Shown: positions 17,000 to 54,451, counted from the first letter of the stretch. The stretch: 64,000 bases of DNA from a virus (IMGVR_UViG_3300030098_005409); one strand, 5' to 3'. The notes: generated by a model from the letters alone, not told the origin. A program made the numbers and translations.

Positions 17000-17033
17000 T
17001 ACAACCCTATTCTAAACTAAATAGACACCTCTT

Positions 17034-18292: not shown

Positions 18293-18296
18293 TCTC

Positions 18297-18704: not shown

Positions 18705-18729
18705 ACTACTAATGCCTCAATATATCTCA

Positions 18730-18805
18730 TGGTGGAGATGACAGGATTCGAACCTGCGACCTGATGCGTGCAAGGCAACTGCTCTCCCAACTGAGCTACA
18801 TCCCC
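18730..18805 (-). tRNA. tRNA-Ala(UGC)
   Basis: Cloverleaf, G3:U70, anticodon TGC, CCA. Confidence 0.95.
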
Positions 18806-18810
18806 ATATA

Positions 18811-18886
<76 letters not shown>

Positions 18887-20647: not shown

Positions 20648-20960
20648 TGGTGGAGGTGGTGGGAATCGAACCCACGTCCAAAGCATATCCAACTTCAAGT
20701 CATTCACAGGTATAGTTTGTTTCTCTAAACAAACAAAGTATCAAATTCGATTCAATCCGCTCAAAAAAGCAAAAGCGTTTTTTTGGTTGTGTTCTTCTTG
20801 GACACCCGGCGAAGAACAACCGGGGATTAAGCAGCTAGTGCTAAACCGTAATCTGCGTCGTTTGCAGTTATATGTTTCTAACTAAAGTTTTATGTGATTG
20901 AGTTAGCTGTCACAACCTGCACTATCCATCTTCCTTACCCTGTCGAAACCTGTCACCCCC
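20648..20960 (-). ncRNA. ssrA: tmRNA, tag ANDADYGLALAA
   Basis: 5' GGGGGTGACAGGTTTCGAC, 3' GGGTTCGATTCCCACCACCTCCACCA with Ala-type G3:U70; resume context ATAACT-GCA; tag codons 20865-20830, then TAA. Confidence 0.95.
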
Positions 20961-32510: not shown

Positions 32511-32691
32511 TTAAAATACTATCTTTCTTTCTTAAAATTTGTTGGTTAATCTTCTTAATCTGATCGCAGCTACCAGTTTCTTTACAAAGGCTATCAAGTT
32601 TTGACTTAAGCCTCTCAACCTTAACCAGTAATTCGTTAACAGCAGAGCTTATCTCATTTATCTCTTCTTGTTTAGAGTCCATTCTCTTCAA
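32473..32691 (-). CDS. Small coiled-coil protein
   Basis: ORF track; heptad pattern. Confidence 0.45.
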   Translation of the reverse strand: MKRMDSKQEEINEISSAVNELLVKVERLKSKLDSLCKETGSCDQIKKINQQILRKKDSILNATHINALREEE

Positions 32692-33361
32692 TCTCCAGCA
32701 TCATATTATAATGTGCGTTTGCAATTGCCTGCCTAACATTAGGGTCCATCAAATTAACAGCATCATCAAAGTTTGTCATAAATCCGTTTTCAGATAAGAC
32801 TGCAGGCATATGCGTCTTTCTTAGAACATAGAAGTTTGCCCAAGTTTCATTTGCTCGGATACCTCGATCACGGAAAGGAGTTAATTCAGCAAGCCACTTT
32901 TGAAGGGATTTAGCCAACACCTCACCAGTCGCGCTGCGATAATGGTAAAAAGTACAGGTCCCCCTTGCACTATTAAAGTCCTTCCCATTGCCAAAAGCAT
33001 TGGAGTGAACAGAAACATAAATACAGTTTTGTTTTTCTTGGTGGATTTTGTTTGCTATTGTAACACGCTGCCGAAGTGATATATCTTCCTCTGTGTCGAC
33101 AACGTTCACGGCATCTAAAGCAAACCGAAGCCAATGCTTTGGTCTTTTAAGAGGTGGCTTGCCTTTCATAAGGTAATGACCTTTTTCTCCCCATTTGCCA
33201 GAACATAAATCCATTATTCTAGCCACAACATCTCTGTTGAACTCGCCTTCGTATAAGCGAGACCCATCCGGAAACTCTGGAGATCTTTTTCCGGCAGTTT
33301 GATAAACTCCGTCAATAAAGCCTCCGTGACCCGGGTCCAATAACCATGTATAGCGTGACAT
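32672..33361 (-). CDS. N-acetylmuramoyl-L-alanine amidase (Amidase_3), probable endolysin
   Basis: 'LDPGH', 'YEGE', 'SVHSNA', 'VLSENGF'. Confidence 0.9.
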   Translation of the reverse strand: MSRYTWLLDPGHGGFIDGVYQTAGKRSPEFPDGSRLYEGEFNRDVVARIMDLCSGKWGEKGHYLMKGKPPLKRPKHWLRFALDAVNVVDTEEDISLRQRVTIANKIHQEKQNCIYVSVHSNAFGNGKDFNSARGTCTFYHYRSATGEVLAKSLQKWLAELTPFRDRGIRANETWANFYVLRKTHMPAVLSENGFMTNFDDAVNLMDPNVRQAIANAHYNMMLEIEENGL

Positions 33362-33379: not shown

Positions 33380-33880
33380 TTATAAATACTCTTTCCATTT
33401 GGAATTGGCATTTCCAATCTTTTTCTTAATTATAGAGTGATAGGATGGTGCCTTTGGAGGTCTTAAAAGCTTGACGGGAGCATCTTCGGGCATATGATTG
33501 CCTTTTAGTTGATTACATCCTCTACAAGCAGCTACAACGTTGTCCCACGTCGTTTGTCCGCCTTTGGAACAAGGAATTACATGATCTATCGTCAATTCGC
33601 TTTCTTTGAAGCGATTTCCGCAATATTGGCAATGAAAATTGTCACGAAGAAGAATATTTTTCCTCACACAAGCTACATCAAAGAATTTTTCGTCAATATA
33701 GCGAAATAAAACGATCACGGAGGGTATCTGGAAGGCTTCTTTGGCTGAATGAACCCATTTATCAGTCCATTCAGCAGCCCAAGCCTTTTTGAGCCACGTA
33801 AGGACAACAGCTTCTTGCCAGGAGATAACTCCTATTGGTTTGAATGAAGAATCTAATTTTAGAACGGTCACATTGTCCAT
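33380..33880 (-). CDS. HNH endonuclease
   Basis: 'CQYCG...TIDHVIP.SKGG...NVVAACRGCN..K'. Confidence 0.9.
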   Translation of the reverse strand: MDNVTVLKLDSSFKPIGVISWQEAVVLTWLKKAWAAEWTDKWVHSAKEAFQIPSVIVLFRYIDEKFFDVACVRKNILLRDNFHCQYCGNRFKESELTIDHVIPCSKGGQTTWDNVVAACRGCNQLKGNHMPEDAPVKLLRPPKAPSYHSIIKKKIGNANSKWKEYL

Positions 33881-33938: not shown

Positions 33939-33967
33939 TTGAAGTCTGATGATTTTTCGATTATACT
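33939..33967 (+). promoter_or_regulatory. sigma70-like promoter for yeaH-spoVR-prkA
   Basis: TTGAAG-17-TATACT; AGTATTTA also lies 4 nt before the yeaH ATG. Confidence 0.5.
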
Positions 33968-34022
33968 AGGAAGAAGAGCCAAACTAAAATGTTTTTAGGC
34001 AGTGTAAGAAAGTATTTAATGT

Positions 34023-35261
34023 ATGAGCGTATTTCGCAAGCATGAATCAATTGTCGACCGGTCAGCTAGCGACCGAACCCGACACAAAAAGAAGATCGAA
34101 AAAGCAATCAAAGAATCTATCAAAGATGTGGTTGCAGACGAGTCAATTATCGGGCAAAATGGCAAGAAAAAGATTCGAATTCCTGTTAGAGGACTCAAAG
34201 AGTATCGTTTTGTCTATGGATCTGGCAAGAAAAACAAGACTGTTGGATCTGGCGGCGATCATAAGCTTAAAAGAGGTCAAAAGATTGGTAAACAACGTGC
34301 GAAGAAGGGGTCTGGACAGGGAACTGGCAAGGCAAGCAATAAAAAAGGCGATCAATACTACGATGTGGAGGTTACTCTTGAGGAATTGGCTGAATATCTC
34401 TTCGCTGACCTCGAACTCCCAGATTTAGAGAAGAAACAGTTCCGCTTCATCACCCAGGAGACCGTAAAGCGCAAAGGATATCGCTTCCAGGGCATCCGAC
34501 CGAGACTTTCAAAGAAGGAAACTCTAAAAAGAAAGATTCGACGCCAAAAAATGGCTGAAAAGACCGGCGCTTACGACCCTGAGTCCGATGAGCGCTTCCC
34601 TTTTCACAAAGATGACATGAAATATCATCACATCAAGCCCAAGGCAAAGGAAAACTCATCAGCAGTCATCTTTTTCTTGATGGATGTGTCCGGATCGATG
34701 TCTCAGGACCGCAAATATCTTGCAAGATCCTTCTTTTTCCTTCTTTATCAGTTTTTGAACCACCGATACGAGCGAGTTGAGGTCGTTTTTATCTCCCACT
34801 CCACTCATGCCGAGCGAGTAAACGAAGATGACTTCTTTAAAGTCGGCACATACGGCGGAACTATCATCTCTTCGGCACTTAATCGACAAATGGAGATTGT
34901 TGAGAAAGAATTTCACCCAAATGCTTGGAATATTTATACATTTTACTGTGGCGATGGTGAAAATTGGGCATCTGACAACGAAAAGTGCATTGATTTGTTT
35001 AAAGAAATCAAAGAAGTCAGTCAATTAACGGCTTATTGTGAAATAAATGAGCACTATAAGGGCTTGGATGATGAATCCCTACAAGATGATAGGTTTAAAA
35101 CCAGCCCCTGGGCCAATTTTTCAGCGTGGAAAAACGAAGAAATGGATAATTTGTGGTCCAAATTGAAACCAATTACTGATAATAAGTTTAAGAGAGTAAT
35201 GATTGGACAAACAGAACATATTTGGTTGGCATTTAAAACACTTTTCGGCGGGAGTAAGTAA
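34023..35261 (+). CDS. yeaH: YeaH/YhbH (DUF444) vWA-domain protein
   Basis: 'RHKKKI', 'RIPV', 'EYRF'; MIDAS 'MDVSGSM', 'GGTIISS', 'GDGEN'. Confidence 0.92.
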   Translation: MSVFRKHESIVDRSASDRTRHKKKIEKAIKESIKDVVADESIIGQNGKKKIRIPVRGLKEYRFVYGSGKKNKTVGSGGDHKLKRGQKIGKQRAKKGSGQGTGKASNKKGDQYYDVEVTLEELAEYLFADLELPDLEKKQFRFITQETVKRKGYRFQGIRPRLSKKETLKRKIRRQKMAEKTGAYDPESDERFPFHKDDMKYHHIKPKAKENSSAVIFFLMDVSGSMSQDRKYLARSFFFLLYQFLNHRYERVEVVFISHSTHAERVNEDDFFKVGTYGGTIISSALNRQMEIVEKEFHPNAWNIYTFYCGDGENWASDNEKCIDLFKEIKEVSQLTAYCEINEHYKGLDDESLQDDRFKTSPWANFSAWKNEEMDNLWSKLKPITDNKFKRVMIGQTEHIWLAFKTLFGGSK

Positions 35262-35262
35262 A

Positions 35263-36570
35263 ATGAGTGACTGGACAGTTGCAGATTTGCAAAAATGGGA
35301 TGACAAAATCTGTCGCGTTGGCGAAGATTTTGGTTTAGACTGGTTCCCGATTGATTATGAGATCATTGATTACGCTGAAATGCTTGGAGCGATGGCTTAT
35401 ACGGGACTTCCAACCCATTATCGCCACTGGTCGTACGGAAAAGAGTACGAAAGAACCCACACACTTTACAATATGGGCCAGACCGGACTACCTTATGAGA
35501 TGATTATTAACTCAAATCCGTCTATCGCATACTTGATGAGAGAAAACGCTCTCTACATTCACATTTTGACGATGGCGCACTGTGTTGGTCACTCGGATTT
35601 CTTCAAACAGAACCGTATGTTCGCGCATACAGACCCAGCTAACATCATTGTGAGCTTTAAATCAGCCGCCAAATACGTACGTCAGCTAATTGAGGATCCT
35701 TCAATCGGGATTGATAGAGTTGAGAAGATTTTGGACGCAGCGCATTCAATCAAGTATCAGGTTCCAAGATATCCAGGAATCAAATATAAGACCCGTGAGG
35801 AGGTTCTTGAGATTGAAAAAGACAAAATGGCTGAGAATATTAACTACAAACCGGACTTATCCAAGGTTCCTTTGCGCCCAGAGTACAACCTATTACGGTT
35901 TATTGCCGAGAACAGCAAACATTTGGAAGAATGGGAAAGAAATCTTATCCTTATTGTTGAGGAATCGTCCAAATACTTCATTCCTCAGGCTCTGACCAAG
36001 GTTATGAACGAAGGATGGGCTTGTACGATCCACCAAAAGATTATTAACGAGTTGAATTTGCCTGATAGTTTGTATCTTCCCTTTATTAAGCTACACAATC
36101 AGGTTATTCGACCGCACTTGGGGCAACTCAACCCTTACCACCTGGGTTATAAGTTGTTCCAGAAGATCATTGAAGAGAAAGGCTTTGAGGAAGCAATGAC
36201 AATCCGAGAAGTCCACAATGATATAACGTTTCTTCGTTTCTACATGGATGAAGAGTTTATGAAAGAGAACAACTATTTCTCATACTCTTTTGATAAAAAG
36301 AAGCAGTCGTCTGTTGTAGACGACATATCTGACGGAGAAGGCTGGGAAAATGTTAGAGATGCCATGATTGGAAATGTTGGTCTCAACAGATTACCCGTCG
36401 TCTTTGTCGACGAGGTAGAGAAAGATAACACCCTTTGTCTTGTTCATGAACATGACGGTAGGGATATAGAGTTGAATTATGCCCGAAAGGTTTTCGAATT
36501 TATTGAAACTCTTTGGGGAGATAGTGTAAAATTAATCACAATAGTGGAAGATGAAATATGGGAGTTTTAG
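35263..36570 (+). CDS. spoVR: SpoVR/YcgB family protein
   Basis: 'HYRHWSYGK', 'YEMIINSNP', 'AHCVGHSDFFK', 'MNEGWA', 'NPYHLG'; start at ATG 35263. Confidence 0.92.
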   Translation: MSDWTVADLQKWDDKICRVGEDFGLDWFPIDYEIIDYAEMLGAMAYTGLPTHYRHWSYGKEYERTHTLYNMGQTGLPYEMIINSNPSIAYLMRENALYIHILTMAHCVGHSDFFKQNRMFAHTDPANIIVSFKSAAKYVRQLIEDPSIGIDRVEKILDAAHSIKYQVPRYPGIKYKTREEVLEIEKDKMAENINYKPDLSKVPLRPEYNLLRFIAENSKHLEEWERNLILIVEESSKYFIPQALTKVMNEGWACTIHQKIINELNLPDSLYLPFIKLHNQVIRPHLGQLNPYHLGYKLFQKIIEEKGFEEAMTIREVHNDITFLRFYMDEEFMKENNYFSYSFDKKKQSSVVDDISDGEGWENVRDAMIGNVGLNRLPVVFVDEVEKDNTLCLVHEHDGRDIELNYARKVFEFIETLWGDSVKLITIVEDEIWEF

Positions 36571-36571
36571 C

Positions 36572-38506
36572 ATGACCACAACAAAGAAATTCCTCGAATC
36601 GGTTAGGGAACACCGTGAGAGTAAGAAGAGAGAAAAGTTCTCCGGGGTATTGGAAGACTACCTAAAACTAATTGAGGAAGACCGAGATATTCCGGTGCTT
36701 GCTCACAAAAGACTTTACGAAAAGATTATTGGAGAAGGGGTCACTGTCTTGGATGAGACTGATGCTCGTTGTAATAAGCTTTTCAATGGCGAGACCGTAA
36801 AGACATACGATTATTTCTCCGGTCAGTTCTTCGGAATGGAGCGCCCACTAGAAAAGGTCGTGCGCTTCCTTCACTCTGCCGCGATGAAGGGCGAGGAGAG
36901 TCGTCAGGTTCTTCTTCTCTTGGGTCCGGTAGGTGCCGGTAAGTCTGCTCTTGTAGAACACATTAAGGGAGCGCTTGAAGAGTGCGACCCAATTTTTACT
37001 TTGGATGGCTGCCCAATCCGCGAGGAGCCACTTCACCTTATCCCACGTTCATTACGCGCCGAATTTGCCGACACGTACAACATCAAGATCGAAGGTGACC
37101 TTTGTCCCGTATGTCGTCACAGGCTTATTAATGAGTTTGGCGGCGATTTCACTAAGTTCCCAATCACTGAGTCCTCTTTTTCTGTCCGCGGCCGCAAGGG
37201 TGTCGGCGTTGTTCCCCCAATGGATCCCAACACACAGGACACCAGCCTTCTTATCGGCTCTGAGGATATTTCAAAGCTGGACTTGTACCCAGAAGACGAC
37301 CCGAGAGTTCTTTCGCTCAACGGAGCGTTCAACGTTGGTAACCGAGGCATTGTTGAATTCGTTGAGGTCTTCAAGAACGAGATTGAGTTCCTTCACACAA
37401 TGATTACCGCAACCCAGGAAAAGTCAGTTCCCTCTCCTGGTAAGCAGGCAATGATTTACTTTGATGGCGTCATTCTTGCTCACTGCAACGAAGCTGAATG
37501 GAACAAATTCAAGGCTGAGCACACAAACGAAGCTATCCTTGATCGTATTGTCCGTGTCAATGTTCCTTACTGCCTTGAAGTAGATCAGGAGATAAAGATT
37601 TATGAGAAGCTTATCGGTCGTTCGGACTTCGATAGTCATATCGCACCACACACACTTCAGGTGGCTGCAATGTTCTCCGTTCTTTCTCGCCTCAAGCCTT
37701 CCAACAAGGTTGATGCTCTCACCAAGATGAAGATTTACAACGGTCAAGAGATTGTCGAGAAGGGCCTTATCAAAAAGGTTGATATCAGAGACCTTCGCGA
37801 AGAAGTTGAGGATGAGGGTATGACTGGCATCTCAACTCGTTTCATTATGAAGGCGATTGATGCTGCTCTTGCTGACTCCACAAAGAATATGATTACACCA
37901 ATCTCTATTCGCGAGTCTCTCATCAAGCAGGTTAAGGAGCAGATTGTTAATCCAGACGAGCGTAAGCGCTGCCTAGAGTTCCTACAGAAGGTTCTTCACG
38001 AAGAGTATCTTTCCATTCTTGAGAAGGAAATTACAAAGGCATTTGTCACTGCTTATGAAGAGCAGGCTGAGTCTCTCTTCAACAACTATCTTGATCACGC
38101 TGAAGCTTACGTTAACAACACGAAGGTCAAGGATCGTGTGACCAATGAAGAAATGGACGCTGACGAGAAATTCTTGGCCTCAATTGAGGAGCAGATTGGT
38201 ATCAAGGGCTCAGCTAAGAACAACTTCCGTGCTGATATTACTTCTTACATGTTTGCCAAGCTTCGCAGAGGTGAGGTTATTGACTGGCGTTCTTACGGTC
38301 CTCTCCGCGAGGCTATTGAAGCTAAGTTGGTTGCCTCGGTAAGAGACATCTCTCGTATTGTCACCAAGTCTAAGTCTCGTGATGTTAAACAACAGAAGAA
38401 GTTTAACGCCATGGTTCAGACCTTAATTGACAACTACGGTTATAACGAGGACTCAGCCGAAGAAGTAATTAAGTTTGCTTCGAATAATTTATGGCGCGAT
38501 TCATAA
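36572..38506 (+). CDS. prkA: PrkA/YeaG AAA+ protein (annotated as serine protein kinase)
   Basis: 'FFGME', Walker A 'GPVGAGKS', 'GCPIREEPL', 'GSEDISKL', 'NRGIVEFVE', 'NEAILDR'; start at ATG 36572. Confidence 0.93.
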   Translation: MTTTKKFLESVREHRESKKREKFSGVLEDYLKLIEEDRDIPVLAHKRLYEKIIGEGVTVLDETDARCNKLFNGETVKTYDYFSGQFFGMERPLEKVVRFLHSAAMKGEESRQVLLLLGPVGAGKSALVEHIKGALEECDPIFTLDGCPIREEPLHLIPRSLRAEFADTYNIKIEGDLCPVCRHRLINEFGGDFTKFPITESSFSVRGRKGVGVVPPMDPNTQDTSLLIGSEDISKLDLYPEDDPRVLSLNGAFNVGNRGIVEFVEVFKNEIEFLHTMITATQEKSVPSPGKQAMIYFDGVILAHCNEAEWNKFKAEHTNEAILDRIVRVNVPYCLEVDQEIKIYEKLIGRSDFDSHIAPHTLQVAAMFSVLSRLKPSNKVDALTKMKIYNGQEIVEKGLIKKVDIRDLREEVEDEGMTGISTRFIMKAIDAALADSTKNMITPISIRESLIKQVKEQIVNPDERKRCLEFLQKVLHEEYLSILEKEITKAFVTAYEEQAESLFNNYLDHAEAYVNNTKVKDRVTNEEMDADEKFLASIEEQIGIKGSAKNNFRADITSYMFAKLRRGEVIDWRSYGPLREAIEAKLVASVRDISRIVTKSKSRDVKQQKKFNAMVQTLIDNYGYNEDSAEEVIKFASNNLWRDS

Positions 38507-38532
38507 ACTCCCACTTCCACTATTAGAAGCGC

Positions 38533-38733
38533 CTAAGAGGAGGGGTCGGTTTCGGCCCCTTCTTTTTTTATTACCCTTAAACTTGATTGCTTACACCATT
38601 GAAAAGTTTGTAATTCGCCTTTTTGAAAGACAACACGAATCCAAGGATCAACAGGGTCCAAATCTCCAAAGATATCGATGACAATACCTATTTGACTTGT
38701 TTTGGACCACCGAACTAAATCGCCTACTTTCAT
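38533..38733 (-). CDS. Small SH3/KOW-like protein (MKVGDLV family)
   Basis: 'MKVGDLVRW...GIVI...RVVF'. Confidence 0.65.
   Translation of the reverse strand: MKVGDLVRWSKTSQIGIVIDIFGDLDPVDPWIRVVFQKGELQTFQWCKQSSLRVIKKEGAETDPSS
38538..38569 (+). terminator. Intrinsic terminator after prkA
   Basis: AGGGGTCG-GTTT-CGGCCCCT hairpin followed by a T run. Confidence 0.8.
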
Positions 38734-43545: not shown

Positions 43546-43636
43546 TTCGTATGATACTCCTTTGGTGAAAGACTGAATGCCTTTCCTCACTGTGCTTATA
43601 TAATACCACAACGAGGCGCGTCTGTCAAGAGAAAAA

Positions 43637-44263
43637 TTACCGCGAAGTTGCGCCTTCGCGCTTTGTGATCTCCGCGGCCTTCATCAATGCCTTATGCTTG
43701 ACCCTCTCCCAACGGTCGCTTCCCCATCGTACCTGATTCTCTGGAATCTTCATCGTGGAAATTCGTAGAGCGAGTTCAAGCGAGCAATTTGGATGTTGCA
43801 CGAACCTCTCAATCGCGTAATACTCCGGGTCGCGGGTTTCGTCTGTAACAACGTCGTTATAGATTTCTTCAAGTAGAGCGGCTGGAGTATTTGATATTTT
43901 GGGATTCCTGTACCAATGATAGCCGCCTAGAAAAGCCTGAACCATTCGCCAGGAGCGACGATGAAGCCTACGCTTGAAAACATCCCGATAGAATGCGGTA
44001 TACTCTTCGTCTGAAAGTTCCATATTGCCATTCATAAGAAGGCAACACTTGAGAACGTAACCCTTTCTCTCCCAAAGGATTTTGGCAGCTTTGGGTGAAA
44101 CATCGGGGTTTTCCGCAAGGTATTGCCTTCCGAGAGCATAATAATGCTTCGCAATCGCAATTTGTGTCTCTTCGTCAGTAAAACGATTCTTCGCGAGGGA
44201 AACAACCTCGGCATTGTACATCTTGCCAATGTTGGCAGCATAAGGGGACTTGTATTCACTCAT
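43637..44263 (-). CDS. Hypothetical protein with LRV-like helical repeats
   Basis: 'LAENPDVS', 'FVQHPNCS'. Confidence 0.5.
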   Translation of the reverse strand: MSEYKSPYAANIGKMYNAEVVSLAKNRFTDEETQIAIAKHYYALGRQYLAENPDVSPKAAKILWERKGYVLKCCLLMNGNMELSDEEYTAFYRDVFKRRLHRRSWRMVQAFLGGYHWYRNPKISNTPAALLEEIYNDVVTDETRDPEYYAIERFVQHPNCSLELALRISTMKIPENQVRWGSDRWERVKHKALMKAAEITKREGATSR

Positions 44264-44266
44264 TCT

Positions 44267-44530
44267 CTAAAACTCCATCCCGCTGAAATCAAACGGGTCA
44301 ACATTAGCTTGTTCGCCTTCGCCCACCGCATCGGCAACGGACGTATTGAATTGGTGTAGTTTATCCCACACACTCCTGCTCAGGTTATTTACTGTGTCAA
44401 TCCTCGCAAGGATTGATGCCTCGTTTTCCACAAACGCAGACTTGTATTGTGCATACAACTCGTCTTCAAGCCTATTGAGAGCATCCACAATCGTCTCAAC
44501 TTGTTCGGGAGTTAGTTCAAACTTAATCAT
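44267..44530 (-). CDS. Hypothetical protein
   Basis: ORF track; ATGA coupling. Confidence 0.55.
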   Translation of the reverse strand: MIKFELTPEQVETIVDALNRLEDELYAQYKSAFVENEASILARIDTVNNLSRSVWDKLHQFNTSVADAVGEGEQANVDPFDFSGMEF

Positions 44531-44808
44531 TCTGGGAACTCCGAATTTTGGAAAACGACGGGATGCATAACGTGGTCAGCCCTCCATCGCGCCTTTCCAA
44601 TATGGCAGGAAGTCGTCATAGACATAAACGAACCACCAGGGGAAGTGAAATCGCCCAACACCGTTGAGCCCGACTTAGCACGATAACCAATCCGAAGATT
44701 GTAGGAATACAGGTTCACACCATCTGTGCGAAGTGCGCCAGTGTGGGAATCAGCCTTTACGCCGCGTGTCCAGGCATCAATAACTTCTTCGTTTCGCATT
44801 CTACTCAT
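44527..44808 (-). CDS. Hypothetical protein
   Basis: GGAG SD; start MSRMRNE. Confidence 0.55.
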   Translation of the reverse strand: MSRMRNEEVIDAWTRGVKADSHTGALRTDGVNLYSYNLRIGYRAKSGSTVLGDFTSPGGSFMSMTTSCHIGKARWRADHVMHPVVFQNSEFPE

Positions 44809-44980
44809 TTTCTTCTTCCTCATCTCCGAATTCAATGTCGTCGTATTCAACGTCAAAACCGTATCGCAAAGAATTGCAAACGTCCCAAATGTTATCTTCT
44901 TCCATTTCAGTGCAGGCTCCATTCAACGCCAACGGCAATAAATCCAATACACATAATCAGTTGCATAGCAAGTTCAAGCA

Positions 44981-45124
44981 TTAGTCTCTCTTTCTGTTTT
45001 TGTGTTTAGTCTTGCGGGAGCGTCCCTTTGAAACGTCCCGGCTTCTGTTGTGATGTTTACCGGCACCACCTCTTTGAAAGGCTGCAACGGCAATCCAATT
45101 TCGAGTTTTAATCTTCCCAGACAT
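44981..45124 (-). CDS. 47-aa basic protein
   Basis: MSGKIKTRNWIAVAAFQRGGAGKH...RKTKHKNRKRD*; directly after promoter 45155-45183 and GGAGG. Confidence 0.6.
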   Translation of the reverse strand: MSGKIKTRNWIAVAAFQRGGAGKHHNRSRDVSKGRSRKTKHKNRKRD

Positions 45125-45194
45125 TCGGGGCACCCCTTCCTCCACTGTCTTTATAGTATACCAGAAGGGGCACCCGTTGTCAAGAGGAAAATGA

Positions 45195-46481
45195 TTACCT
45201 TTCGGTAGGAACGATAATCATTCGTTCGGGCTTCGGGTTGAAATAAGGACGCTGCCCGTTGTACTCATCGGTAATCCAGAGACGCTGAACATTGCAGCGA
45301 ACCGGCTTCGGTGCCTCCATATCGGTGCAAATGATAAGACCGTCGAATCCGCCCTTCTCATTCACGAAGTTCGTGGGAGCGTTGAAGCAAGTTCCACCGT
45401 GCATTACACGTTCACGCTTGCGCTGCATTCCCTTCTTCCAAACATAGTTCAGACTCTCATCGACACGAGTATCGAAAGGAATGACAGTGAACTCAGCAAT
45501 CTTTGCGAGCGAGTTGAGTTCCGCGAAGAAAGCAGCAAGCATCGAATCCGAAACAGAGCCCGACTGGTCAATGGCAATAGCAATCTTTGCGGTTCGCGTA
45601 GACTTCTTGCCGGGATGCTGGTAAGGATACCGCTTGTTAATCTTACGAACAGTGCTTCGCTTGTTTGCCTTTTGGCTTTGCTTCACGAAGTATCGCAGGA
45701 CCTTGCGCCAGTCAACCTTAGTGGAAATACCATCCATGATTTCCTTGCGACAACTGGCAGGAACTGAACCCCATCCACGGGAAGAAGAGTTTGCCTCTTC
45801 AACCGCATCCTTGATAAACTCCTTTACACGCTCCTCAGCAATCTGCTTTGCCTGTTCATCGGCTTCGCCCCATCCACCGTGGTCATCAAAAGAATCCATA
45901 TCATCCAGGGGACTTCCGCCACCTCCACCGGGCTGGCCTTCACCGTCACCGCCTTGACCTTCGCCATTACCTTCACCTTCCGGCTGCTCTTTCTGCATCT
46001 TGCGAAGCTCAGACAAGTACCATTCGGCAGACTTGCCAGCAGGCAAATGTTCAAACGGACCCTTACCAGGGAAACAGGCCATATCAGGAAGATTCGGAAG
46101 ATGACCGTTGATAGAAAGGTCCATCGCTACATTGTGCAACTTCCTTTCTTGCGGGCTCATATCGCGGAATGCTGCGAATCGCCCACCAGTAACATGCTGA
46201 TAAACAATGTGATAGAATTCGTGCTTTAGCACATCCTTCTTTGCTGCATCCTCCAGTCCCGCGAAGAACTTAGGATTGTAAATCATCTCCAACTTACCTT
46301 CCTCAGTCACCATCACACCGGCAGTTGGAATAGCAGCCGAAGGCTTCTTATCCATCCGACGCGAAAGTGCCGCAAAGAAAGGTTCATCCATTAGAAGACG
46401 ATGGATGTGCAAACCAAGGTCAAAGGCAATAACCCCTGATTCCTCAGTTTGTTCAGTTTCAGTTTTCATCGGCTCAGTCAT
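45195..46481 (-). CDS. DUF2201-type metallopeptidase + vWA-like domain protein
   Basis: 'LKHEFYH', G/E-rich linker, MIDAS 'IDQSGS', 'GGT', 'TD'. Confidence 0.85.
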   Translation of the reverse strand: MTEPMKTETEQTEESGVIAFDLGLHIHRLLMDEPFFAALSRRMDKKPSAAIPTAGVMVTEEGKLEMIYNPKFFAGLEDAAKKDVLKHEFYHIVYQHVTGGRFAAFRDMSPQERKLHNVAMDLSINGHLPNLPDMACFPGKGPFEHLPAGKSAEWYLSELRKMQKEQPEGEGNGEGQGGDGEGQPGGGGGSPLDDMDSFDDHGGWGEADEQAKQIAEERVKEFIKDAVEEANSSSRGWGSVPASCRKEIMDGISTKVDWRKVLRYFVKQSQKANKRSTVRKINKRYPYQHPGKKSTRTAKIAIAIDQSGSVSDSMLAAFFAELNSLAKIAEFTVIPFDTRVDESLNYVWKKGMQRKRERVMHGGTCFNAPTNFVNEKGGFDGLIICTDMEAPKPVRCNVQRLWITDEYNGQRPYFNPKPERMIIVPTER

Positions 46482-46554
46482 TCGCTGCTCTCCCCACTGT
46501 CTCTATATAATAGCAGATTTGAAATCCCCTGTCAAGGGGAATCTTCATCCCTTA

Positions 46555-47616
46555 CTATACCGAGTCGCCGGTCAGAATTTCAACAAGGTAGGAACCAACC
46601 TTACGACCGCTCGCATCTTCCGCCGAGTGCAGAGAGATAGCATTGTCCTGGCAAGCGTTGCCGACAACGGTCCAAAGCTTCATCGCAGGTTCCGAAGGAA
46701 GCGAAGTGAAGTAAGTCGCGAGGTTGGTAATCTCGCCTTCATTCAGCGCATTCGCAAGACGCTCGGAGGCACCCAGCTTATCAATCAAAGCGCAGTGCGC
46801 GTTAAGGTCAATATCCGGGGTCTGTCCCTTATCGAGAATGTCGGAGACAGTCACGACCTTGCTGTAGTTCGCAACGAAATCGTTGAAAGCAACCGCAGCC
46901 TCAAAGCCGAGATAAGCAGAAGCAAGCGAGAAAACAACCGGATTCGATTGTCCAGCTTCCAGCATTCCACCGCGACCCACCGTATCGGAGAATCGAGCCC
47001 ACGAACGACGCGAAGGATAAACCTTGTTAGGCTCCGGGTCATCGTTGTGCTCAAGATGCTCGACGTTGTTACGAATGAAGTCCGTCACCAGAGCATCGCA
47101 GTTGGACTGTGCCCAGGAAAGCCAATCATCCACCGAAGGCTCAACATCGAAAACCGTGTAACGGTCAAGCTCGGCAGGGTCCATCTCGCCAACCTGATAA
47201 GAAGCCGCACCCGCATGAGTGCCACCGTTGACAGCCGCGAAAATCAGCGTATCCGGGTGGAGAGCGTGACCGGCGAGCTTGCGAGAATCACAAAGCTCAA
47301 AGATGCCCTGTCGAACTTCCAGGGTTGCACGGTCTACCTCATCGAGGAAGAGAACCACGCCGGTATCGCAAGCAGTCGCAAACCAGTCGGGAGGACAAAA
47401 GGAAGTCACACCCTCATCCACGGTGGGAAGACCCAAAAGGTCGCCCTCGGTCATCTGCGAAGCACGACGCTCCACAATCGGCATACCGAGAGATTCGGCA
47501 TACTGATAAACCACAGAGGACTTACCAATACCGTGACGTCCACGAAGAAGTACAGGATGCCCCGCGTCAGTAACGAGGGGAAGGACGGTCAGAAGATTCT
47601 TGAAGTCGATTGCCAT
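46555..47616 (-). CDS. MoxR/dynein-like AAA+ ATPase
   Basis: Walker A 'GRHGIGKS', Walker B 'LFLDEV', 'MDPAELDR', 'PSRRSW'; start MAIDFK. Confidence 0.88.
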   Translation of the reverse strand: MAIDFKNLLTVLPLVTDAGHPVLLRGRHGIGKSSVVYQYAESLGMPIVERRASQMTEGDLLGLPTVDEGVTSFCPPDWFATACDTGVVLFLDEVDRATLEVRQGIFELCDSRKLAGHALHPDTLIFAAVNGGTHAGAASYQVGEMDPAELDRYTVFDVEPSVDDWLSWAQSNCDALVTDFIRNNVEHLEHNDDPEPNKVYPSRRSWARFSDTVGRGGMLEAGQSNPVVFSLASAYLGFEAAVAFNDFVANYSKVVTVSDILDKGQTPDIDLNAHCALIDKLGASERLANALNEGEITNLATYFTSLPSEPAMKLWTVVGNACQDNAISLHSAEDASGRKVGSYLVEILTGDSV

Positions 47617-47726
47617 GTTTTTCTTTCTTTCTTTTCCAGTTGACTGAGCGTTGTCGCTCCGTCCAGTGTCTATATAGTACCACACCAGGGGCTCGCTGTC
47701 AAGCCCCAAATTCATCTCTTTCTTAA

Positions 47727-48599
47727 CTAACTATCATCGCCAGGAAGTTCCGGGTCATCCATTTCCGAAAGTTGAATTTCACCGTTGACATACCGTTGAA
47801 GTTGGTCAAGCTGAAAATCGGTAAAGTGCTTGAACCCATGAGCCTGTTCGGCAGTCTTGCCGCCTCTGAAGTGTTCCTTTGTAACCTTCGCGAGGGTCTT
47901 TGCACCAACCCACTCGGAACTAAAATCCTTGACGGCAGGCGAAACGGTTTCCCACTCTCCCTCGGCACCGACATACTCATTCCTGTCATAATTATTATAT
48001 TGATCATAGTACGACTTCACCCTTCCGTGGCGCGGCACAATGCCAGGAATAGAGGGAATGGCAAGAGTAAGTGACTTGCCATAATAGCCAGGGTCCTTGA
48101 TTCCCATAACATCAAACGATGCGAAAGGAACATTGTTATTTGACCACGCGTTAGTCGCAGGGATACCAACATAATGGGTCATAAATTGCCCCGGAGTATC
48201 GTGCATAACCATTCCAACAGGAGGGACGTAATTGTCATCCGAGGGATACAAGTATTGTCCGTCTCTTCGATAAGAAATCTTACCAGCGCGAACCATCGCA
48301 CCAATACCAAAGCCGGTATCCTTTGCCCACTTGAGGACAGCACGACGCCACAAACTCAGTTCAAACTGAAACTGCGACTTGTGTCGCTTCATAATCGCAC
48401 AACCGGCGCGGGTGTGACCTTCTTCGCCACAATAACTACAAATCCTTGGCTTTGCCTTGCGGTCAAGAATTGCCTGCCACTGGCGACCATAATAACTGTT
48501 AGGGTCCTTTTCCCATTCCTTCTTCAATTCAGGACAACTGGTTTTGTTGTGTCCTGATTGGTAACAATGGCTACAACGTACTGTGCCAGTATAACTCAT
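47727..48599 (-). CDS. Protein with two CCHC zinc knuckles
   Basis: 'CSHCYQSGHNKTSC' and 'CSYCGEEGHTRAGC'. Confidence 0.75.
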   Translation of the reverse strand: MSYTGTVRCSHCYQSGHNKTSCPELKKEWEKDPNSYYGRQWQAILDRKAKPRICSYCGEEGHTRAGCAIMKRHKSQFQFELSLWRRAVLKWAKDTGFGIGAMVRAGKISYRRDGQYLYPSDDNYVPPVGMVMHDTPGQFMTHYVGIPATNAWSNNNVPFASFDVMGIKDPGYYGKSLTLAIPSIPGIVPRHGRVKSYYDQYNNYDRNEYVGAEGEWETVSPAVKDFSSEWVGAKTLAKVTKEHFRGGKTAEQAHGFKHFTDFQLDQLQRYVNGEIQLSEMDDPELPGDDS

Positions 48600-48835
48600 A
48601 TTTTCTCTCCCGATTGCGGGGGGGTTAATCTCTAACTTCTACCTGTATTATACCAGCCTCAAAGGTGGCTGTCAACCTTTTTATTGTAAGGATGGGGGGC
48701 AACATCTTTTCGGGTGTTGCTGCCTAGACAACTTTTAACTTATTTTGTGTTGCCCCACACATATGGGCGGCGAACACTGGGATTCAAGATTGTCATTGAA
48801 GCCCAAATTTATATAATTTTCACCCCAATTCTATG

Positions 48836-49489
48836 TCACTTACGCTTCTTTGCCTTCTTTAGATAACGCTCTTCCGTCCAAATGGGTTCGGCAGACCCGA
48901 TTGGCAATACCTGTACTGGCTTTGCGCCCTTTGCATGGGACTTAACGTCGTTCGCATCCCCATACTTCAAAATAATGACTGGCTTGTTTGCGAATCGGCG
49001 GGTTCCGCTGGCGGCTCGGAAGCAAGCAGTCGAACCTACTACAAATTTAGGTTCGCTCAGGAAGTTGCGAATGACACCCGCAGCGTACTTGTTTTCTACG
49101 ATCTTGTTGTATTCCCCCATTGTGGGAGTACCGCCGGAACGGACACCTGTGAGTCCATCTTTACTCTTCTCATATTTAAGATACTTCCCAGTAATATTGC
49201 CGTAATAGCCGGTTCGATCGTAATAATTAAGGGCGATGCAAAACTTCTGTTCCTTTTCGTCGTCCCAATTTTTGACCCAATCCGCGCGAGCTTTAAGAGC
49301 TTCGTCAGACCAGCGACCCTTAATTTGCTGAAATGCTCGTTCCTGCGGATAGGAAAGAGTCCTCCCACTAGCCAAGTGCTTAGTGATAGACTCTAGGAAC
49401 CCATAATCCCAGGAGTTTTCCTCCCCGGCAATAAGGATTCTTCCCATGAAATCATTTACTTGTTCAAGCATCGTAGTTCCTTCGCTCAT
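48836..49489 (-). CDS. Hypothetical early protein
   Basis: Directly after promoter 49499-49527. Confidence 0.7.
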   Translation of the reverse strand: MSEGTTMLEQVNDFMGRILIAGEENSWDYGFLESITKHLASGRTLSYPQERAFQQIKGRWSDEALKARADWVKNWDDEKEQKFCIALNYYDRTGYYGNITGKYLKYEKSKDGLTGVRSGGTPTMGEYNKIVENKYAAGVIRNFLSEPKFVVGSTACFRAASGTRRFANKPVIILKYGDANDVKSHAKGAKPVQVLPIGSAEPIWTEERYLKKAKKRK

Positions 49490-49523
49490 CGTGTATATAT
49501 ACTACCACAGACCGGCGCGGCTG

Positions 49524-49943
49524 TCAAGCAGAAAGTAAAGTTTGCAGATTAGTGATGTGCTTGCACTTTCCACGAAACTGAAACCCTGAACATTCACACT
49601 TCCACTTGTTGCCTTGCTTCGTGACTTTGTAAGTATTGCCCTTTGAGCCCTTTACTTCAATTACCTTTTCAGGTTCGTCTGAATAGTTCGGATCCCAATA
49701 CTTGCGAGCTTCCGCACCCCAACAAAACAACTCCTTCACATCTTCCAAAGTTGTATCGTCAGGAACCTCAATCCATACACCACCAGAGACAGCGTAATAC
49801 TTACCTTCCCTGCCCTGCATGATAGCCGGATGGAATAAAACTACATGTCGTCCATCAGGCGTCAATTTGCGAAGCATACTCGGCAGCCAATCGCTTGTAG
49901 GTTTGAGCCTGAAAAGTATCAATGTTGAAGTATTCCTCTTCAA
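49524..49943 (-). CDS. SWIM zinc-finger protein
   Basis: 'WKCECSGFQFRGKCKH'; start uncertain. Confidence 0.7.
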   Translation of the reverse strand: MKRNTSTLILFRLKPTSDWLPSMLRKLTPDGRHVVLFHPAIMQGREGKYYAVSGGVWIEVPDDTTLEDVKELFCWGAEARKYWDPNYSDEPEKVIEVKGSKGNTYKVTKQGNKWKCECSGFQFRGKCKHITNLQTLLSA

Positions 49944-50076
49944 TCATATCCCAATACACACCTACAGCATTTAGCATTTCTTCAACATCTTCGCCTAGCG
50001 GACCGGACTGACGCCTGTCTTCCGTTAGTCGCTCCAAAGCCTTACCTTGAAGGTCAGTAAAGTTATCCAAAGTCAT
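49855..50076 (-). CDS. Hypothetical protein
   Basis: ORF track. Confidence 0.4.
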   Translation of the reverse strand: MTLDNFTDLQGKALERLTEDRRQSGPLGEDVEEMLNAVGVYWDMIEEEYFNIDTFQAQTYKRLAAEYASQIDA

Positions 50077-50423
50077 TACTTTTTTCCCTTGTGATTAGAG
50101 TTACCAAAGTTTTCGCCAACCTGACGAAACTTCATTCCAGTCATTGCGGTATTGGCACCGGACAATGCTGCAACCTTGCCTTTGTGCATTCCAATGTTGT
50201 TGTTCCAAGCCTTGCGGTACTTCTCGCGGTCAGCATTGGACTCAAACGCAAGAATAGAAACACCGCCCATCTTACCGTCAGCGGAAGCGCACCCGAGATA
50301 CTTTACAGCAGTCTCAGTTCCCAATTCTTCAACACAGTCGGCGCACTCATTAATACGGCCACCAACTCTACGCTTTCTTTGGGACTTAGGATTAAAATCA
50401 ACTTCGCAGTGAATACAGTTCAT
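50076..50423 (-). CDS. Hypothetical Zn-ribbon protein
   Basis: 'CIHC...ECADC'; GGAGG SD and promoter. Confidence 0.65.
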   Translation of the reverse strand: MNCIHCEVDFNPKSQRKRRVGGRINECADCVEELGTETAVKYLGCASADGKMGGVSILAFESNADREKYRKAWNNNIGMHKGKVAALSGANTAMTGMKFRQVGENFGNSNHKGKK

Positions 50424-51095
50424 CTGACCTCCAGTGTCTATATACTACCACACGACGACACGATTGTCAAGTCATCTTCGTCTAACCAGCATCCGTCACC
50501 GGGTCCAAAATGAACCCAATAGGAAGGGACATATAGACGCTTCCAGCTTTCCAGTATAATTCCAACTTTGCCAGCCAAGTTCTTACCACTAATCGCGGAG
50601 GCACCCAAAGTTTCCTTATTGACTTTTACCATATCGCCAACTTCATACACGGCTTATATCCATTCTTTAAGTGGGGCTGAACTCCCTCATCATATGTATA
50701 CTATAGCACGCGCGTGGGCTCCTGTCAAGGTTTTTAATCGTCTGATTCTACGCTCCCGATAATTTCAATTTCGTCGTGGTCCACATAAAACTTACCATAC
50801 TGAGGATGGTGTAGAAGGTAATCCCACTTACTCGGAACGCCCGATTCTGGGTCATACCAAAGAGGAAAAACTTCCATAACCACAGCAACGTCGCCTGTTT
50901 GAATATCGCGAACCAAATCACCGACTTTCATTGCTACTCGCCACCCTCAAGCATGCTTCACTCCACCAACCTTCGTTATTTGCAGTGTGCCATACGATAT
51001 AATATCCGGCGTGCGAGCGGGACAAATCCATTCGGACTATTGTTCCAAGTTGGCGCTCTTTCGTGAGGATCTGACCCCCTACGTATTCCACCAAA

Positions 51096-51254
51096 TCACC
51101 GACTTTCATTTTCTTCCGTCTCTTCGACAGTTAGGACCTCAACAAACTCTGGCTCTGCCGAGTAATCACTGTTTTCAAACTTAGTCCGAGCTTCATCTTC
51201 TGATTCGGCATCGACATAAATTTCCATACGATAACAAAGGCGATAAACTTTCAT
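51096..51254 (-). CDS. Small acidic protein (copy 2 at 54095-54244)
   Basis: MKVYRLCYRMEIYVDAESEDEAR... in both copies. Confidence 0.7.
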   Translation of the reverse strand: MKVYRLCYRMEIYVDAESEDEARTKFENSDYSAEPEFVEVLTVEETEENESR

Positions 51255-51461
51255 TCTCTGATAATCTCCAATTGGTCTTGCCACATTGATTCTTCAATAT
51301 CTTCCCAATCAAAAAAGTTATTTCTTTTACAGACAGACCACCATATATTAATTCCGTGTTCTTCTTCTCTAGTTACAATCCCAATGTCGTCAACATCTTG
51401 ATCATTGTCGGTTACATCGGCACCCCACCAGCGCACTAATGAGCCAATCTTCAAGCCATCA
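51096..51461. repeat. About 365-bp two-gene duplication, copy 1 (copy 2 at 54085-54451)
   Basis: Hand alignment of 51121-51460 vs 54111-54450: 36 mismatches in 340 nt (about 89% identity). Confidence 0.95.
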
Positions 51462-51845
51462 TAATCAATTTTTGCCACGGCTGATTATCTCCAACTTGTC
51501 GCGACGGTGGTAAACATCCCATGACTCTCCCTTAGCCGCAGTATCAAAGTAGCGCACCCAAACATGTATGCCTTCGGTTGCTATAATATATCCCGCTCCG
51601 TCGTCCGCCCACTCTCCGCGAGCCTTCACAACATCACCAACTTTAGGCTTCGTTCGCACGATGCACCGTTATTCCGTTGTCCGCTTCCCAGCGTCTCATT
51701 TCGCCAAAGTAATAGTGGTATATCATCTCATGGCAATCCACAAATTTAACGTGGACGCCGAAGTCATCAAACATACCATCTCGCTGAACCCGTACAACGA
51801 TTCCTATTTCTTTACCACTTCGCTCGTGAAATTCAATCAAATCAC

Positions 51846-51909
51846 CGGGGTTGTATTCGCTCATAATGGCAGACAATCTTTCTCGGAGTGCGGGGTTGTA
51901 TTCGCTCAT
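51846..51909. repeat. 19-bp direct repeat CGGGGTTGTATTCGCTCAT
   Basis: Exact copies at 51846-51864 and 51891-51909. Confidence 0.95.
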
Positions 51910-52691
51910 CGTGCTTATAGCATACCACGACAGGTTCAGTCTGTCAAGTCTTTATTGACTACCTGCAAATCATCGGGGACCTCCCAATCGTGCTTTCCAT
52001 CCATAGTGTAAACTCTGTATTGTTCCACGCCAGTTGTGAGCAGATGTCGGCTGTCCGTAATAACACCGAGAGTGTCAGTGTATCTCCACTCGCCACCACC
52101 ATCGAACACATACTGAGCCTTTTTCAGTATTACCGCATCACCGATTTCCATTTACCCGCTCCAAAGCAAACTCTAATTCATGTTGAGGAGGATAATCAGG
52201 CCACTTAACAATGACAACTCCCTCTTCATCTGCTTCTTTAAGAATAATGCCAAGCTCTGTATACAATGTTTCGTCTCGCATGATCGTATGATACTTAACC
52301 AAGTCACCGACTTGCACTGATTACCTCCACATCCCAATCGTTAGGATGGAACTCCCGGCGTTTTCCGTCACGGTTACACACAACGGAAAACCAGAAACGG
52401 TTCACGCCGTCGTTAGGGATAACAAGTATGCCGAAATAACGGTCATCGTCACCGCCCCTAATCTCTTTGTGTGTAACCACTACCAAATCACCGATTTGCA
52501 TTACTTACCCCAACGAAAGGATTTCAAAGTCTTCCAAAGGACGCCACATTGTGGGTCCATCACCAGCGAATTGAATGTATTCGCCCTTTCCATCACACTT
52601 ATACGCTGCGACAATCTTCATAATCATCGAACAATCGCGCACAAGCGCACCAATCATAGGCATACCGCGACTTAAAGTCATTTTACTGTCC

Positions 52692-53072
52692 TTAGTATTG
52701 AATGGAGGTTACGGGAGTAATATCCCAATAGCCGGAACCACGAACAACTACGTCACCATAATCCTCGCCAACTCTCGCAAAGCGGAAAAGCTCTTCTGAA
52801 TGTACTTCTTCGCCATCGTCGTTGGTTATTTCCCATTCCCCCGACTCTGCATCATCCATAAACTTCTCAATCGCATCAATGTCGGCATAGCCTTCATACC
52901 ACTTGATTGAATCCCACACGAGAAGCCACGACTTATCGTTTTCGTAGTTTCGCTCAAGATTGCCGTACTTAAACACCAATTCTTCCGCCTCTTTGTTCTT
53001 AGAAGTAGCCAGCAGAAGAAAAGGAATTAGTTCCTTGCTGATAGCCATTACAACTTGCGAGCGATAACCCAT
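52692..53072 (-). CDS. Hypothetical protein
   Basis: GGAGG SD; 'MGYRSQV...WDSIKWY...RVGEDYGD'. Confidence 0.7.
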   Translation of the reverse strand: MGYRSQVVMAISKELIPFLLLATSKNKEAEELVFKYGNLERNYENDKSWLLVWDSIKWYEGYADIDAIEKFMDDAESGEWEITNDDGEEVHSEELFRFARVGEDYGDVVVRGSGYWDITPVTSIQY

Positions 53073-53082
53073 TCCATACCTC

Positions 53083-53319
53083 CTAGTTCAGGCGTTGTGC
53101 TAGTGCAGCGAGTTCGCCATAATTGACAGCTCGGGCCGGCAAATACTTTAGGTCAACGTCATTTCTCTCCAAATGACTCATTACCCCGTAGAGTGAAGAG
53201 GGAGAAGTAGAGTGATCCCATTCTGTGTTCTTACTCAGGCGGCGGCTCACCTCGTGAACAGATGCCGAGGTTTGCCATGTTTCTATGAACAATTTGTAAT
53301 CTTCGTGGCGTCGTGCCAT
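53083..53319 (-). CDS. Hypothetical protein, possible HTH
   Basis: After promoter 53343-53371; 'SVHEVSRRL'. Confidence 0.55.
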   Translation of the reverse strand: MARRHEDYKLFIETWQTSASVHEVSRRLSKNTEWDHSTSPSSLYGVMSHLERNDVDLKYLPARAVNYGELAALAQRLN

Positions 53320-54084
53320 GTGTGTACCTCCATTGTGCTTACAGCATACCACGGGATGCGGCTGCTGTCAACCCCTAATCGTTAATCGTGAAATCGTAGG
53401 GCTCGTGCGGAATGATAGAAAGCGCCTCGCGTCTTTCCCACGAATCACGGTGCGGGGCCAACTCGTCTTCCCACTGCACACACAACTGCTGGAATGGTGT
53501 CTCCACCTCATAGCTGCTGTCGATTACGGTTCCCACCGAACCAGTTCCAAAATGCTGTACCTTATCCCCAATATCCATTTCTAGTTTCCTTTCTTTACTA
53601 CCTTCACATAATTTCCCATGATGAAACCCGTTCTGTTGGGCCATGCGACAATTGGATTCTTTCCGAAAGTATCCCCCACGCGGAAATCAACAATAATGCC
53701 CAACTCGCCGCTGTTGATATTTCTTACCAAGTCACCGACTTTCACTTACCATCTCCAAAGCAAACTCTAGGTCATACTCAGGGTCCTTGTCGGGCCACTT
53801 AACCAGAACAGTACCGTCAGTATCCATTTCAATAACAATCCCAAGCTGTAGTGTTTCGCCTTCGGTGTGCAACAAACCAGGGTGATACTTAACTAAATCA
53901 CCTACTTGCACTGACTACCTCCAAGTCTCTCCGCCTTACCCAGCTAACATCCTTGCCGCCATCATCGAACCACCGAACACGTAGTTCCTTGATACCGCGG
54001 ACAGGGAGGTCGTGAATGAATTCCTCTACAACTATTCCCACGCAATCAGCCTGAAAACCCTGCGACCGACTGAGCTTTACTAGA

Positions 54085-54451
54085 TCGCCGACCTTCATTC
54101 TCTCTCCGTCTCTTCGACAGTTAGAACCTCAACAAACTCTGGCTCTGCCGAGTATTCACTATTCTCAAACTTAGTCCGTGCTTCATCCTCTGATTCGGCA
54201 TCGACATAAATTTCCATACGATAACACAGGCGATAAACTTTCATTCTCTGATAATCTCCAATTGGTCCTGCCACATTGATTCTTCAACCTCGGACCATTC
54301 AAAAAAGTTGTCTCTGTTGCAAACAGACCACCAAATAGTAACTCCGTTTTTTTCTTCTCTAGTTACGATTCCAACGTCGTCAACGTCTTGATCGTTGTCA
54401 GTTACATCGGCACCCCACCAACGAACCAAAGTGCCAATCTTCAAGTCATCA
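54085..54451. repeat. About 365-bp two-gene duplication, copy 2
   Basis: See copy 1. Confidence 0.95.

Follow-up and report, generated by a model that had tools for sequence, protein, structure and literature searches.

The 64,000-nucleotide stretch of viral DNA analysed here (IMGVR_UViG_3300030098_005409, hereafter the window) carries on its plus strand, at positions 33939-38572, a single compact transcription unit of the order yeaH-spoVR-prkA. Judged from its relatives, the window is part of an uncultured T4-like phage, and the comparisons below show three intact genes on which strong purifying selection acts. The first-pass annotation had described the module as a full copy of a cellular system with which the phage manipulates host dormancy, persistence or development. 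The first half of this description holds: Pfam matches, motifs and ratios of nonsynonymous to synonymous substitution rates (dN/dS) of 0.02-0.05 identify a complete, intact and selected copy. The second half has no support: nothing points to sporulation, and phyla that do not sporulate often have the family (44 of 201 genomes in the Pseudomonadota, 147 of 151 in the Bdellovibrionota). From sequence, structural models and analogy with the cellular system we infer instead, with the chances for and against about balanced, that the trio may be an ATP-driven protein-turnover machine that recycles or remodels host protein.

The genes and their products

The first gene (yeaH/yhbH, 34023-35261, plus strand) encodes a vWA-type protein of 412 amino acid residues that matches DUF444 (PF04285) over its whole length (E 4e-107). 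Residues of the MIDAS type (DVSGS...GGT...GDG, pattern DxSxS...T...D) were found, and besides DUF444 there were weak matches to VWA_CoxE (E 0.0018) and VWA_2. The second gene (spoVR/ycgB, 35263-36570, plus strand, 435 aa) is covered by PF04293 from profile position 1 to 404 of 407 (E 3e-113 to 4e-113), while its SpoVR_C domain scores 27.6 bits, exactly the cut-off of 27.6. The longest open reading frame (ORF) of spoVR begins upstream at TTG 35203, yet the true start is most likely ATG 35263, which lies 2 nt past the yeaH stop (a 1-nt gap) and 8 nt past a GGGAG Shine-Dalgarno sequence; the relatives likewise have 435 residues.

Lastly, prkA/yeaG (spdA; 36551-38506, plus strand, 651 aa) encodes an AAA+ ATPase with the PrkA C-terminal domain. 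Both parts are matched in Pfam, AAA_PrkA (PF08298) with E 1e-145 over profile positions 3-358 of 358 and the C-domain (PF06798) with E 8e-80 over positions 1-255 of 255, and in the PDB the protein matches 9xip, a 'Serine protein kinase' (E 6e-98). The family is recognised by a Walker A lysine (K108 in Bacillus subtilis) required for ATPase and in vitro protease activity; PrkA of the window has the Walker A sequence GPVGAGKS, and its K131 is invariant among 13 phage sequences. The prkA and spoVR genes overlap by 20 nt, and all three genes thus abut or overlap on one strand. The trio is accordingly present and intact with its catalytic motifs, as first annotated, with near-full-length Pfam matches, Walker A and MIDAS residues.

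The carrier genome

The occurrence of the module in viruses was surveyed by scanning IMG/VR with PrkA. The scan confirmed 155 relatives, of which the best 80 loci (63-97% identity; named L001 and so on) were fetched, and in 80 of 80 the order yeaH-spoVR-prkA on one strand was found where the locus reaches far enough. Records of five relatives (165-257 kb) were tested for the T4 capsid protein gp23 (PF07068), and four contained it with E values of 1e-59 to 1e-63, among them those of L005 and L006, whose PrkA proteins are 84-87% identical to that of the window. Within the 64-kb window itself there is no structural gene region; it is almost wholly minus-strand coding and includes PhoH, Amidase_3 and HNH genes, nine transfer RNA (tRNA) genes and a transfer-messenger RNA (tmRNA). 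When the 4.7-kb block was compared by megablast with 50,697 phage records, no match appeared, hence there is no close sequenced isolate, and the best phage records in tblastn were at most 34% identical.

The three genes had been called the only plus-strand genes in 64 kb. The GC skew, positive solely at 34-38 kb, fits this statement; in a check that was not exhaustive, the other long plus-strand ORFs examined had no family match, and the minus-strand ORFs overlapping them did match families. Block and flanks do not differ in GC content, which, taken with the skew, shows that the block has the coding-strand composition of the genome itself.

A sole clear plus-strand unit with cellular homologs is also what an assembly chimera or contamination, a bacterial fragment fused to phage DNA, would look like. 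Both junctions of the block, HNH|yeaH on one side and prkA|orf171 on the other, are however common to the window and to six assemblies from different samples (L001-L006). Moreover, the trio occurs in all 80 fetched viral loci, its phage gene order is absent from the 74 Bacillota loci holding all three genes, its GC content is that of the flanks and its coding-strand skew has the sign of the rest of the genome, and the phage copies make up a clade of their own. The chimera, which had been named as the finding that could undo the first annotation, is refuted as far as sequence can show, and we give it practically no chance.

Origin of the module and selection

A PrkA tree of 74 rows, 29 of them from the phage clade, was calculated with IQ-TREE in quick mode under LG+C20. 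The phage-clade rows formed one branch, with a support of 100 in the Shimodaira-Hasegawa-like approximate likelihood ratio test, sister to Clostridia and Negativicutes (97), and the Pseudomonadota, Thermus phage phiYS40 and Ralstonia phage RsoM2USA were placed far from it. FastTree likewise recovered the phage copies of YeaH (0.95) and SpoVR (0.98) as monophyletic. The monophyly for which a test had been suggested is thus borne out for all three proteins, and the trees indicate that the whole phage clade inherited the complete module from one ancestor.

Among cellular proteins, PrkA of the Bacillota (Clostridia and Negativicutes) is 59-62% identical to that of the window, with about 40-47% for YeaH and about 40-46% for SpoVR. 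Relatives of PrkA were further found in 44 of 201 Pseudomonadota genomes (33-36% identity) and in 147 of 151 Bdellovibrionota genomes (33-37%); this cellular genome scan used two peptide patterns, and closer cellular relatives that do not contain them could escape it. An unbiased search of 1.8 billion representatives returned only three full-length or nearly full-length PrkA clusters, at 50-56% identity, the other rows of higher identity being fragments and the rest at most 40% identical.

Four contigs from metagenome-assembled genomes (MAGs) with PrkA identities of 63-66% show the phage gene order, and we read them as phage DNA binned into MAGs. Two of the four are labelled 'Bdellovibrionota' (PrkA 63-64%). 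The Bdellovibrionota were nonetheless rejected as source of the trio, their own PrkA being 33-37% identical in 147 of 151 genomes and the 63-64% contigs being phage-ordered. One of these MAGs, labelled Halobacteriovorax (G008), contains a contig with a phage-type trio, T4 gp23 on a different contig and a 35% identical PrkA of its own (C25:8090-10015, C13:45823-47427 and C18:83857-85377); phage DNA was either binned wrongly here or hints at a link to the host.

Relaxed selection, with dN/dS near 1, had been proposed as a refuting outcome. Against the closest relatives L001 and L002 the ratios were 0.02-0.03 for prkA and 0.03-0.05 each for yeaH and spoVR, at dS values of 0.45-1.1 that are unsaturated; farther pairs were saturated, and the range obtained for spoVR of L003 is unusable. 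Columns that are near-invariant in cells are retained at 137 of 150 positions in PrkA, 49 of 53 in YeaH and 83 of 107 in SpoVR.

Gene order and orientation

In bacteria the order of the genes is a different one, as had been noted at first: all 74 of the 74 Bacillota loci holding all three genes have prkA-yeaH-spoVR. With prkA first in every one of these loci, the phage order yeaH-spoVR-prkA is a cyclic permutation that marks the clade.

The description of the module as an inverted cassette proved correct in part. It holds for the window, for L001-L006 and for L080, whereas 57 of 79 related loci have trio and flanks all in one orientation, frequently separated by just a few bases; the inverted arrangement was counted in 8 of the 79. 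An HNH neighbor, an own promoter and an own terminator occur only in the sub-lineage L001-L006, L080 being inverted as well. The inversion and the HNH neighbor are therefore traits of this sub-lineage and not of the module. Within the sub-lineage the module is a self-contained, divergently oriented operon.

Predicted structures of SpoVR and of a YeaH-SpoVR complex

What is new, at the level of models, is a zincin-like fold of SpoVR with an HxxxH motif, and a modelled contact between YeaH and SpoVR. The SpoVR structure was predicted for the window protein with AlphaFold2 (mean predicted local distance difference test score, pLDDT, 85.8). In VIA-align nearly all top matches of this mostly helical model were zincin metallopeptidases (M1, M4, M30, M32, M3, ACE and DUF885), with Z scores of 7-11.3 and 163-200 residues aligned at a root mean square deviation of 3.6-6.1 Å. 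The residues H106xxxH110, E154 and E250 are invariant. The HxxxH motif keeps the histidine spacing of HExxH and has no glutamate at position +1. As the HExxH glutamate is missing, SpoVR is not classed as a member of the zincins.

The model of the YeaH-SpoVR complex scored 0.82, against 0.00 for the best of three controls; of solved complexes 58 of 80 attained this mark, of mismatched pairs 2 of 110, counts that apply only roughly because the model was made with own alignments. The runs agreed in at least 85% of the contacts, and the pLDDT of the partner was at least 86. In the predicted contact, YeaH contributes residues 1-24 and 57-89, not its vWA domain, and SpoVR mainly residues 336-413. 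A sequence search for solved structures of relatives of YeaH or SpoVR found none. The model supports the binding of YeaH to SpoVR, and both the contact and the SpoVR fold are hypotheses that can be tested by mutation on phage copies that are strongly conserved, autonomous and compact.

Proposed function

For some 30 years there has been no clear mechanism for the PrkA/YeaG-YeaH-SpoVR system, widespread as it is; it has been called a kinase, a Lon-like protease and neither of the two. Its three genes are cofit (r>0.7) in six bacteria, make up one operon in the majority of bacteria and give mutant phenotypes that vary by species (bioRxiv 10.1101/072470). In October 2026, YeaG was linked to bulk starvation proteolysis in Escherichia coli: the protein, now named SpdA, is needed for the starvation-induced, largely non-specific degradation of cytoplasmic protein as a source of amino acids and ATP, a process that also shuts off RpoS and YeaG themselves (PMC13684143, 2026). 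PrkA of B. subtilis breaks down casein, for which it depends on ATP and on Walker A, and showed no kinase activity in vitro (PMC9512850). Owing to these two observations, bulk proteolysis with YeaG and casein proteolysis with PrkA, protein turnover is a better-founded guess for the phage module than dormancy signalling.

According to this proposal PrkA, YeaH and SpoVR would act as one ATP-driven protein-turnover machine with PrkA as its AAA+ motor. YeaH would be the bridging adaptor, its conserved N-terminal segments holding SpoVR, as in the model, and its vWA domain free for PrkA or the substrate. SpoVR would contribute a zincin-like HxxxH subunit, maybe a hydrolase or else a pseudo-peptidase with a regulatory part. 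On expression during infection, the module would increase the bulk or selective breakdown of host cytoplasmic protein, comparable to YeaG in starved E. coli, and the freed amino acids and energy would serve virion synthesis in slow-growing, nutrient-poor hosts. If true, such recycling of host protein would be a protein-level counterpart to the degradation of host DNA by phages, and the reading of viral 'sporulation' genes such as spoVR would change; in one oxygen-minimum-zone virome spoVR was reported to be the most abundant of these genes (PMC8940887).

Several points weigh against this proposal. The protease activity of B. subtilis PrkA is very slow (PMC9512850), and in vitro both the protease and the kinase activity of Bacillus anthracis PrkA were negligible (PMC13001217), hence the biochemistry of PrkA is disputed. 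The PrkA studied in E. coli shares only about 33-36% identity with that of the window; moreover, that work tests YeaG, with 0 mentions of YeaH or YcgB (PMC13684143). The SpoVR model had no match in the PDB at E <= 0.001 in Foldseek, and Z scores of 7-11 are within reach of mostly helical models by common architecture. SpoVR furthermore has no catalytic glutamate of the HExxH type, the motif reading H106-C-V-G-H110 in the window and H-V-Y-G-H in cells, and it has clade-specific replacements at 24 of 107 cell-conserved columns. The promoter is only a 9/12 match, and the 'nutrient-poor host' is an assumption. A literature search for the trio as a studied unit in phages returned annotations only; the value of the window lies in part in this, as it presents a module with no dedicated phage study among the literature found.

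A bolder version of the turnover proposal, which we hold only tentatively, would make the trio a three-part ATP-dependent protease of unrecognised architecture, with PrkA as motor, YeaH as a bridge that clamps SpoVR by its N-terminal segments and docks on PrkA or the substrate by its vWA domain, and SpoVR as a divergent zincin-type hydrolase, repeatedly taken up by large phages as a portable 'autophagy' device that converts host protein to building blocks. If this were true, a reconstitution that settles the dispute on PrkA biochemistry would be simplest with the compact, self-contained operons of phages.

The same biochemical basis would serve a selective host takeover or counter-defence, in which the module does no bulk recycling and unfolds or degrades particular host proteins such as stress sigma, defence or hibernation factors and thereby keeps a starved cell productive. 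The vWA/MIDAS domain of YeaH is typical of specific protein-binding adaptors, RpoS and YeaG are themselves shut off by the degradation that starvation sets in motion (PMC13684143), the species-dependent mutant phenotypes suit a target-specific action, and a sigma70-like promoter would permit expression by the unmodified host RNA polymerase. The targets are however putative, the degradation in E. coli is described as largely non-specific, and no conserved partner or target gene lies beside the trio, whose flanks differ between sub-clades. We regard selective takeover as rather unlikely.

Less likely still is the reading closest to the original annotation, a signalling system of kinase, adaptor and SpoVR by which the phage would make its host enter or leave dormancy, persistence or sporulation. 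Such a pathway was proposed by Price et al. (bioRxiv 10.1101/072470), prkA, yhbH and spoVR mutants of Bacillus are sporulation-defective (PMC9512850, PMC13001217), among cells the closest relatives belong to spore-forming Clostridia and Negativicutes, and the prominence of spoVR among viral 'sporulation' genes in the oxygen-minimum-zone virome would be in line with it. Nevertheless, kinase activity was not reproduced for PrkA of B. subtilis or B. anthracis, the family is widespread among non-sporulating phyla, the carrier phage is T4-like and no other sporulation gene is present among the ORFs of the window that were scanned. In addition, phage contigs of the clade were binned with MAGs of Gram-negative bacteria only, which is weak evidence.

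Relation to known systems

Closest among known systems is the cellular module in its short-form subtype, which belongs to Clostridia and Negativicutes. In the PrkA tree it is sister to the phage module, with which it shares three full-length families encoded adjacently on one strand. It differs in the order prkA-yeaH-spoVR and in not being carried by a T4-like phage, and relative to it SpoVR of the window is replaced at the 24 of 107 columns already mentioned. The E. coli proteins YeaG (SpdA), YeaH and YcgB belong to the same three families and their genes are cofit; there, however, the genes are split into yeaGH and ycgB, PrkA is 33-36% identical, and control is by RpoS in place of the own promoter of the phage operon.

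Thermus phages phiYS40 (DQ997624), TMA and Lalka8 carry the trio permuted in the same way as the window, yeaH-spoVR-(x)-prkA; the annotations given to the genes are conserved protein or vWA, SpoVR, and serine kinase or AAA ATPase. In contrast to the window, their PrkA is 33% identical and distant in the tree, their host and phage group are different, and their neighbors are head and terminase genes. The trio of Lalka8 (L182) lies at 3549-7764 and that of phiYS40 (L082) at 1555-7680, the latter with an extra gene of 616 codons before prkA. These neighborhoods would suit a role on phage proteins, in which the module remodels or processes them, for example in head assembly or maturation: in Lalka8 the trio sits between the portal/minor-head genes and TerL, and in phiYS40 it is directly upstream of the terminase region. 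The flanks in the window and its relatives, however, are not structural genes and vary between sub-clades, the cellular system operates without any phage, and T4-like phages that do not have the trio assemble normally. A role on phage proteins thus seems improbable to us, well behind the takeover and dormancy readings.

Complete phage-borne trios are also present in the Ralstonia jumbo phage RsoM2USA and in the huge uncultured phages LR745206 and LR756511. These differ from the window in having the bacterial order prkA-yeaH-spoVR and 30-34% identity, and are of the proteobacterial type; they represent separate acquisitions. The differing orders and tree positions of the trio among phages consequently indicate several acquisitions by phages. 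Annotations of the trio in phages go back to phiYS40, and the paper on RsoM2USA lists it too; the window is therefore a well-supported example and no new kind of system.

An AAA+ ATPase encoded beside a MIDAS-bearing vWA partner is also typical of the MoxR-type pairs such as RavA-ViaA, in which no membership is claimed here. PrkA differs from these in its own AAA clade, its large C-domain and the third obligatory partner SpoVR.

Six proteins of 1000-1570 residues (P0005, P0007, P0010, P0036, P0041 and P0051) match PrkA with their C-terminal 370-430 residues, from about position 225-310 of PrkA to its end, at 37-40% identity. They are long fused forms of the PrkA family.

Regulatory elements

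The unit begins with a sigma70-like promoter found by a scan (33939-33967, plus strand), composed of TTGAAG (33939-33944), a 17-nt spacer and TATACT (33962-33967). It agrees with 9 of 12 consensus positions, and promoter-like matches in the region are no commoner than in shuffled sequences. Despite diverged spacers, the hexamers are kept in L001-L003 and, as TTGCAA/TATAAT, in L006. On the minus strand of the window, at 43600-61532, about 18 promoters come near the consensus, with the form TTGACA-N14-TGnTAnnnT and spacers rich in GC. The promoter of the trio stands outside this class, as it does not have the extended -10 form TTGACA-N14-TGn of these near-consensus promoters (43.6-61.5 kb).

The 5' leader contains a perfect 6-bp palindrome, CTAAAA-TGT-TTTTAG (33984-33998, plus strand), identical in L001-L003 and partly kept in L006, which is a possible operator or RNA/leader hairpin. 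The sequence AGTATTTA (34011-34018, plus strand) occupies the position of a ribosome-binding site, 5-12 nt 5' of the yeaH ATG; it is conserved in L001-L003, and its counterpart in L006 is AAGGTAATTA. It had been listed as a motif of the cassette, a status it does not keep, since it is not enriched (5 matches in the window against 2.75 +/- 1.6 expected). The unit ends in an intrinsic terminator found by a scan (38535-38572, plus strand), whose hairpin (38535-38566) has a 14-bp stem and a 4-nt loop and is followed by a T run. The hairpin is kept in L001-L003, with an altered loop in L003, and in L004 its position is taken by a different hairpin, likewise followed by a T run. The own promoter and terminator of the first-pass annotation were thus both located, and both are conserved in close relatives.

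Neighboring genes and other features of the window

The HNH endonuclease gene reported next to the trio is present as its divergent neighbor, outside the module (33380-33880, minus strand; Pfam HNH_5, E 6e-19), and an HNH gene adjoins the trio in L001-L006 only, with 63-98% identity. It is itself adjoined by an Amidase_3 gene (N-acetylmuramoyl-L-alanine amidase, 32672-33361, minus strand), which is kept near the trio in L001-L005 and whose product is probably an endolysin.

A conserved fourth gene of the module was sought and none was found; the ORFs flanking the trio in L039 recur in some members of the clade only and do not occur in the window, and flanking genes vary between sub-clades. Most of the ORFs that flank the trio in the window or in L039 had no match in PHROGs and Pfam, and with mostly unmatched flanks the neighborhood tells little about function. 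In L039, a gene for a PIN-PhoH fusion (15848-17161, plus strand) is located 4 kb downstream of the trio. A PhoH-like gene encoding 439 residues, a second gene of the 'starvation-inducible' type, is found in the window at 15680-16999 (minus strand), 17 kb from the trio.

The nine tRNA genes of the window are located at 17783-18886 and 56901-58769. The tmRNA (20648-20960, minus strand) is of the one-piece type and encodes the tag ANDADYGLALAA, which might help to place the host.

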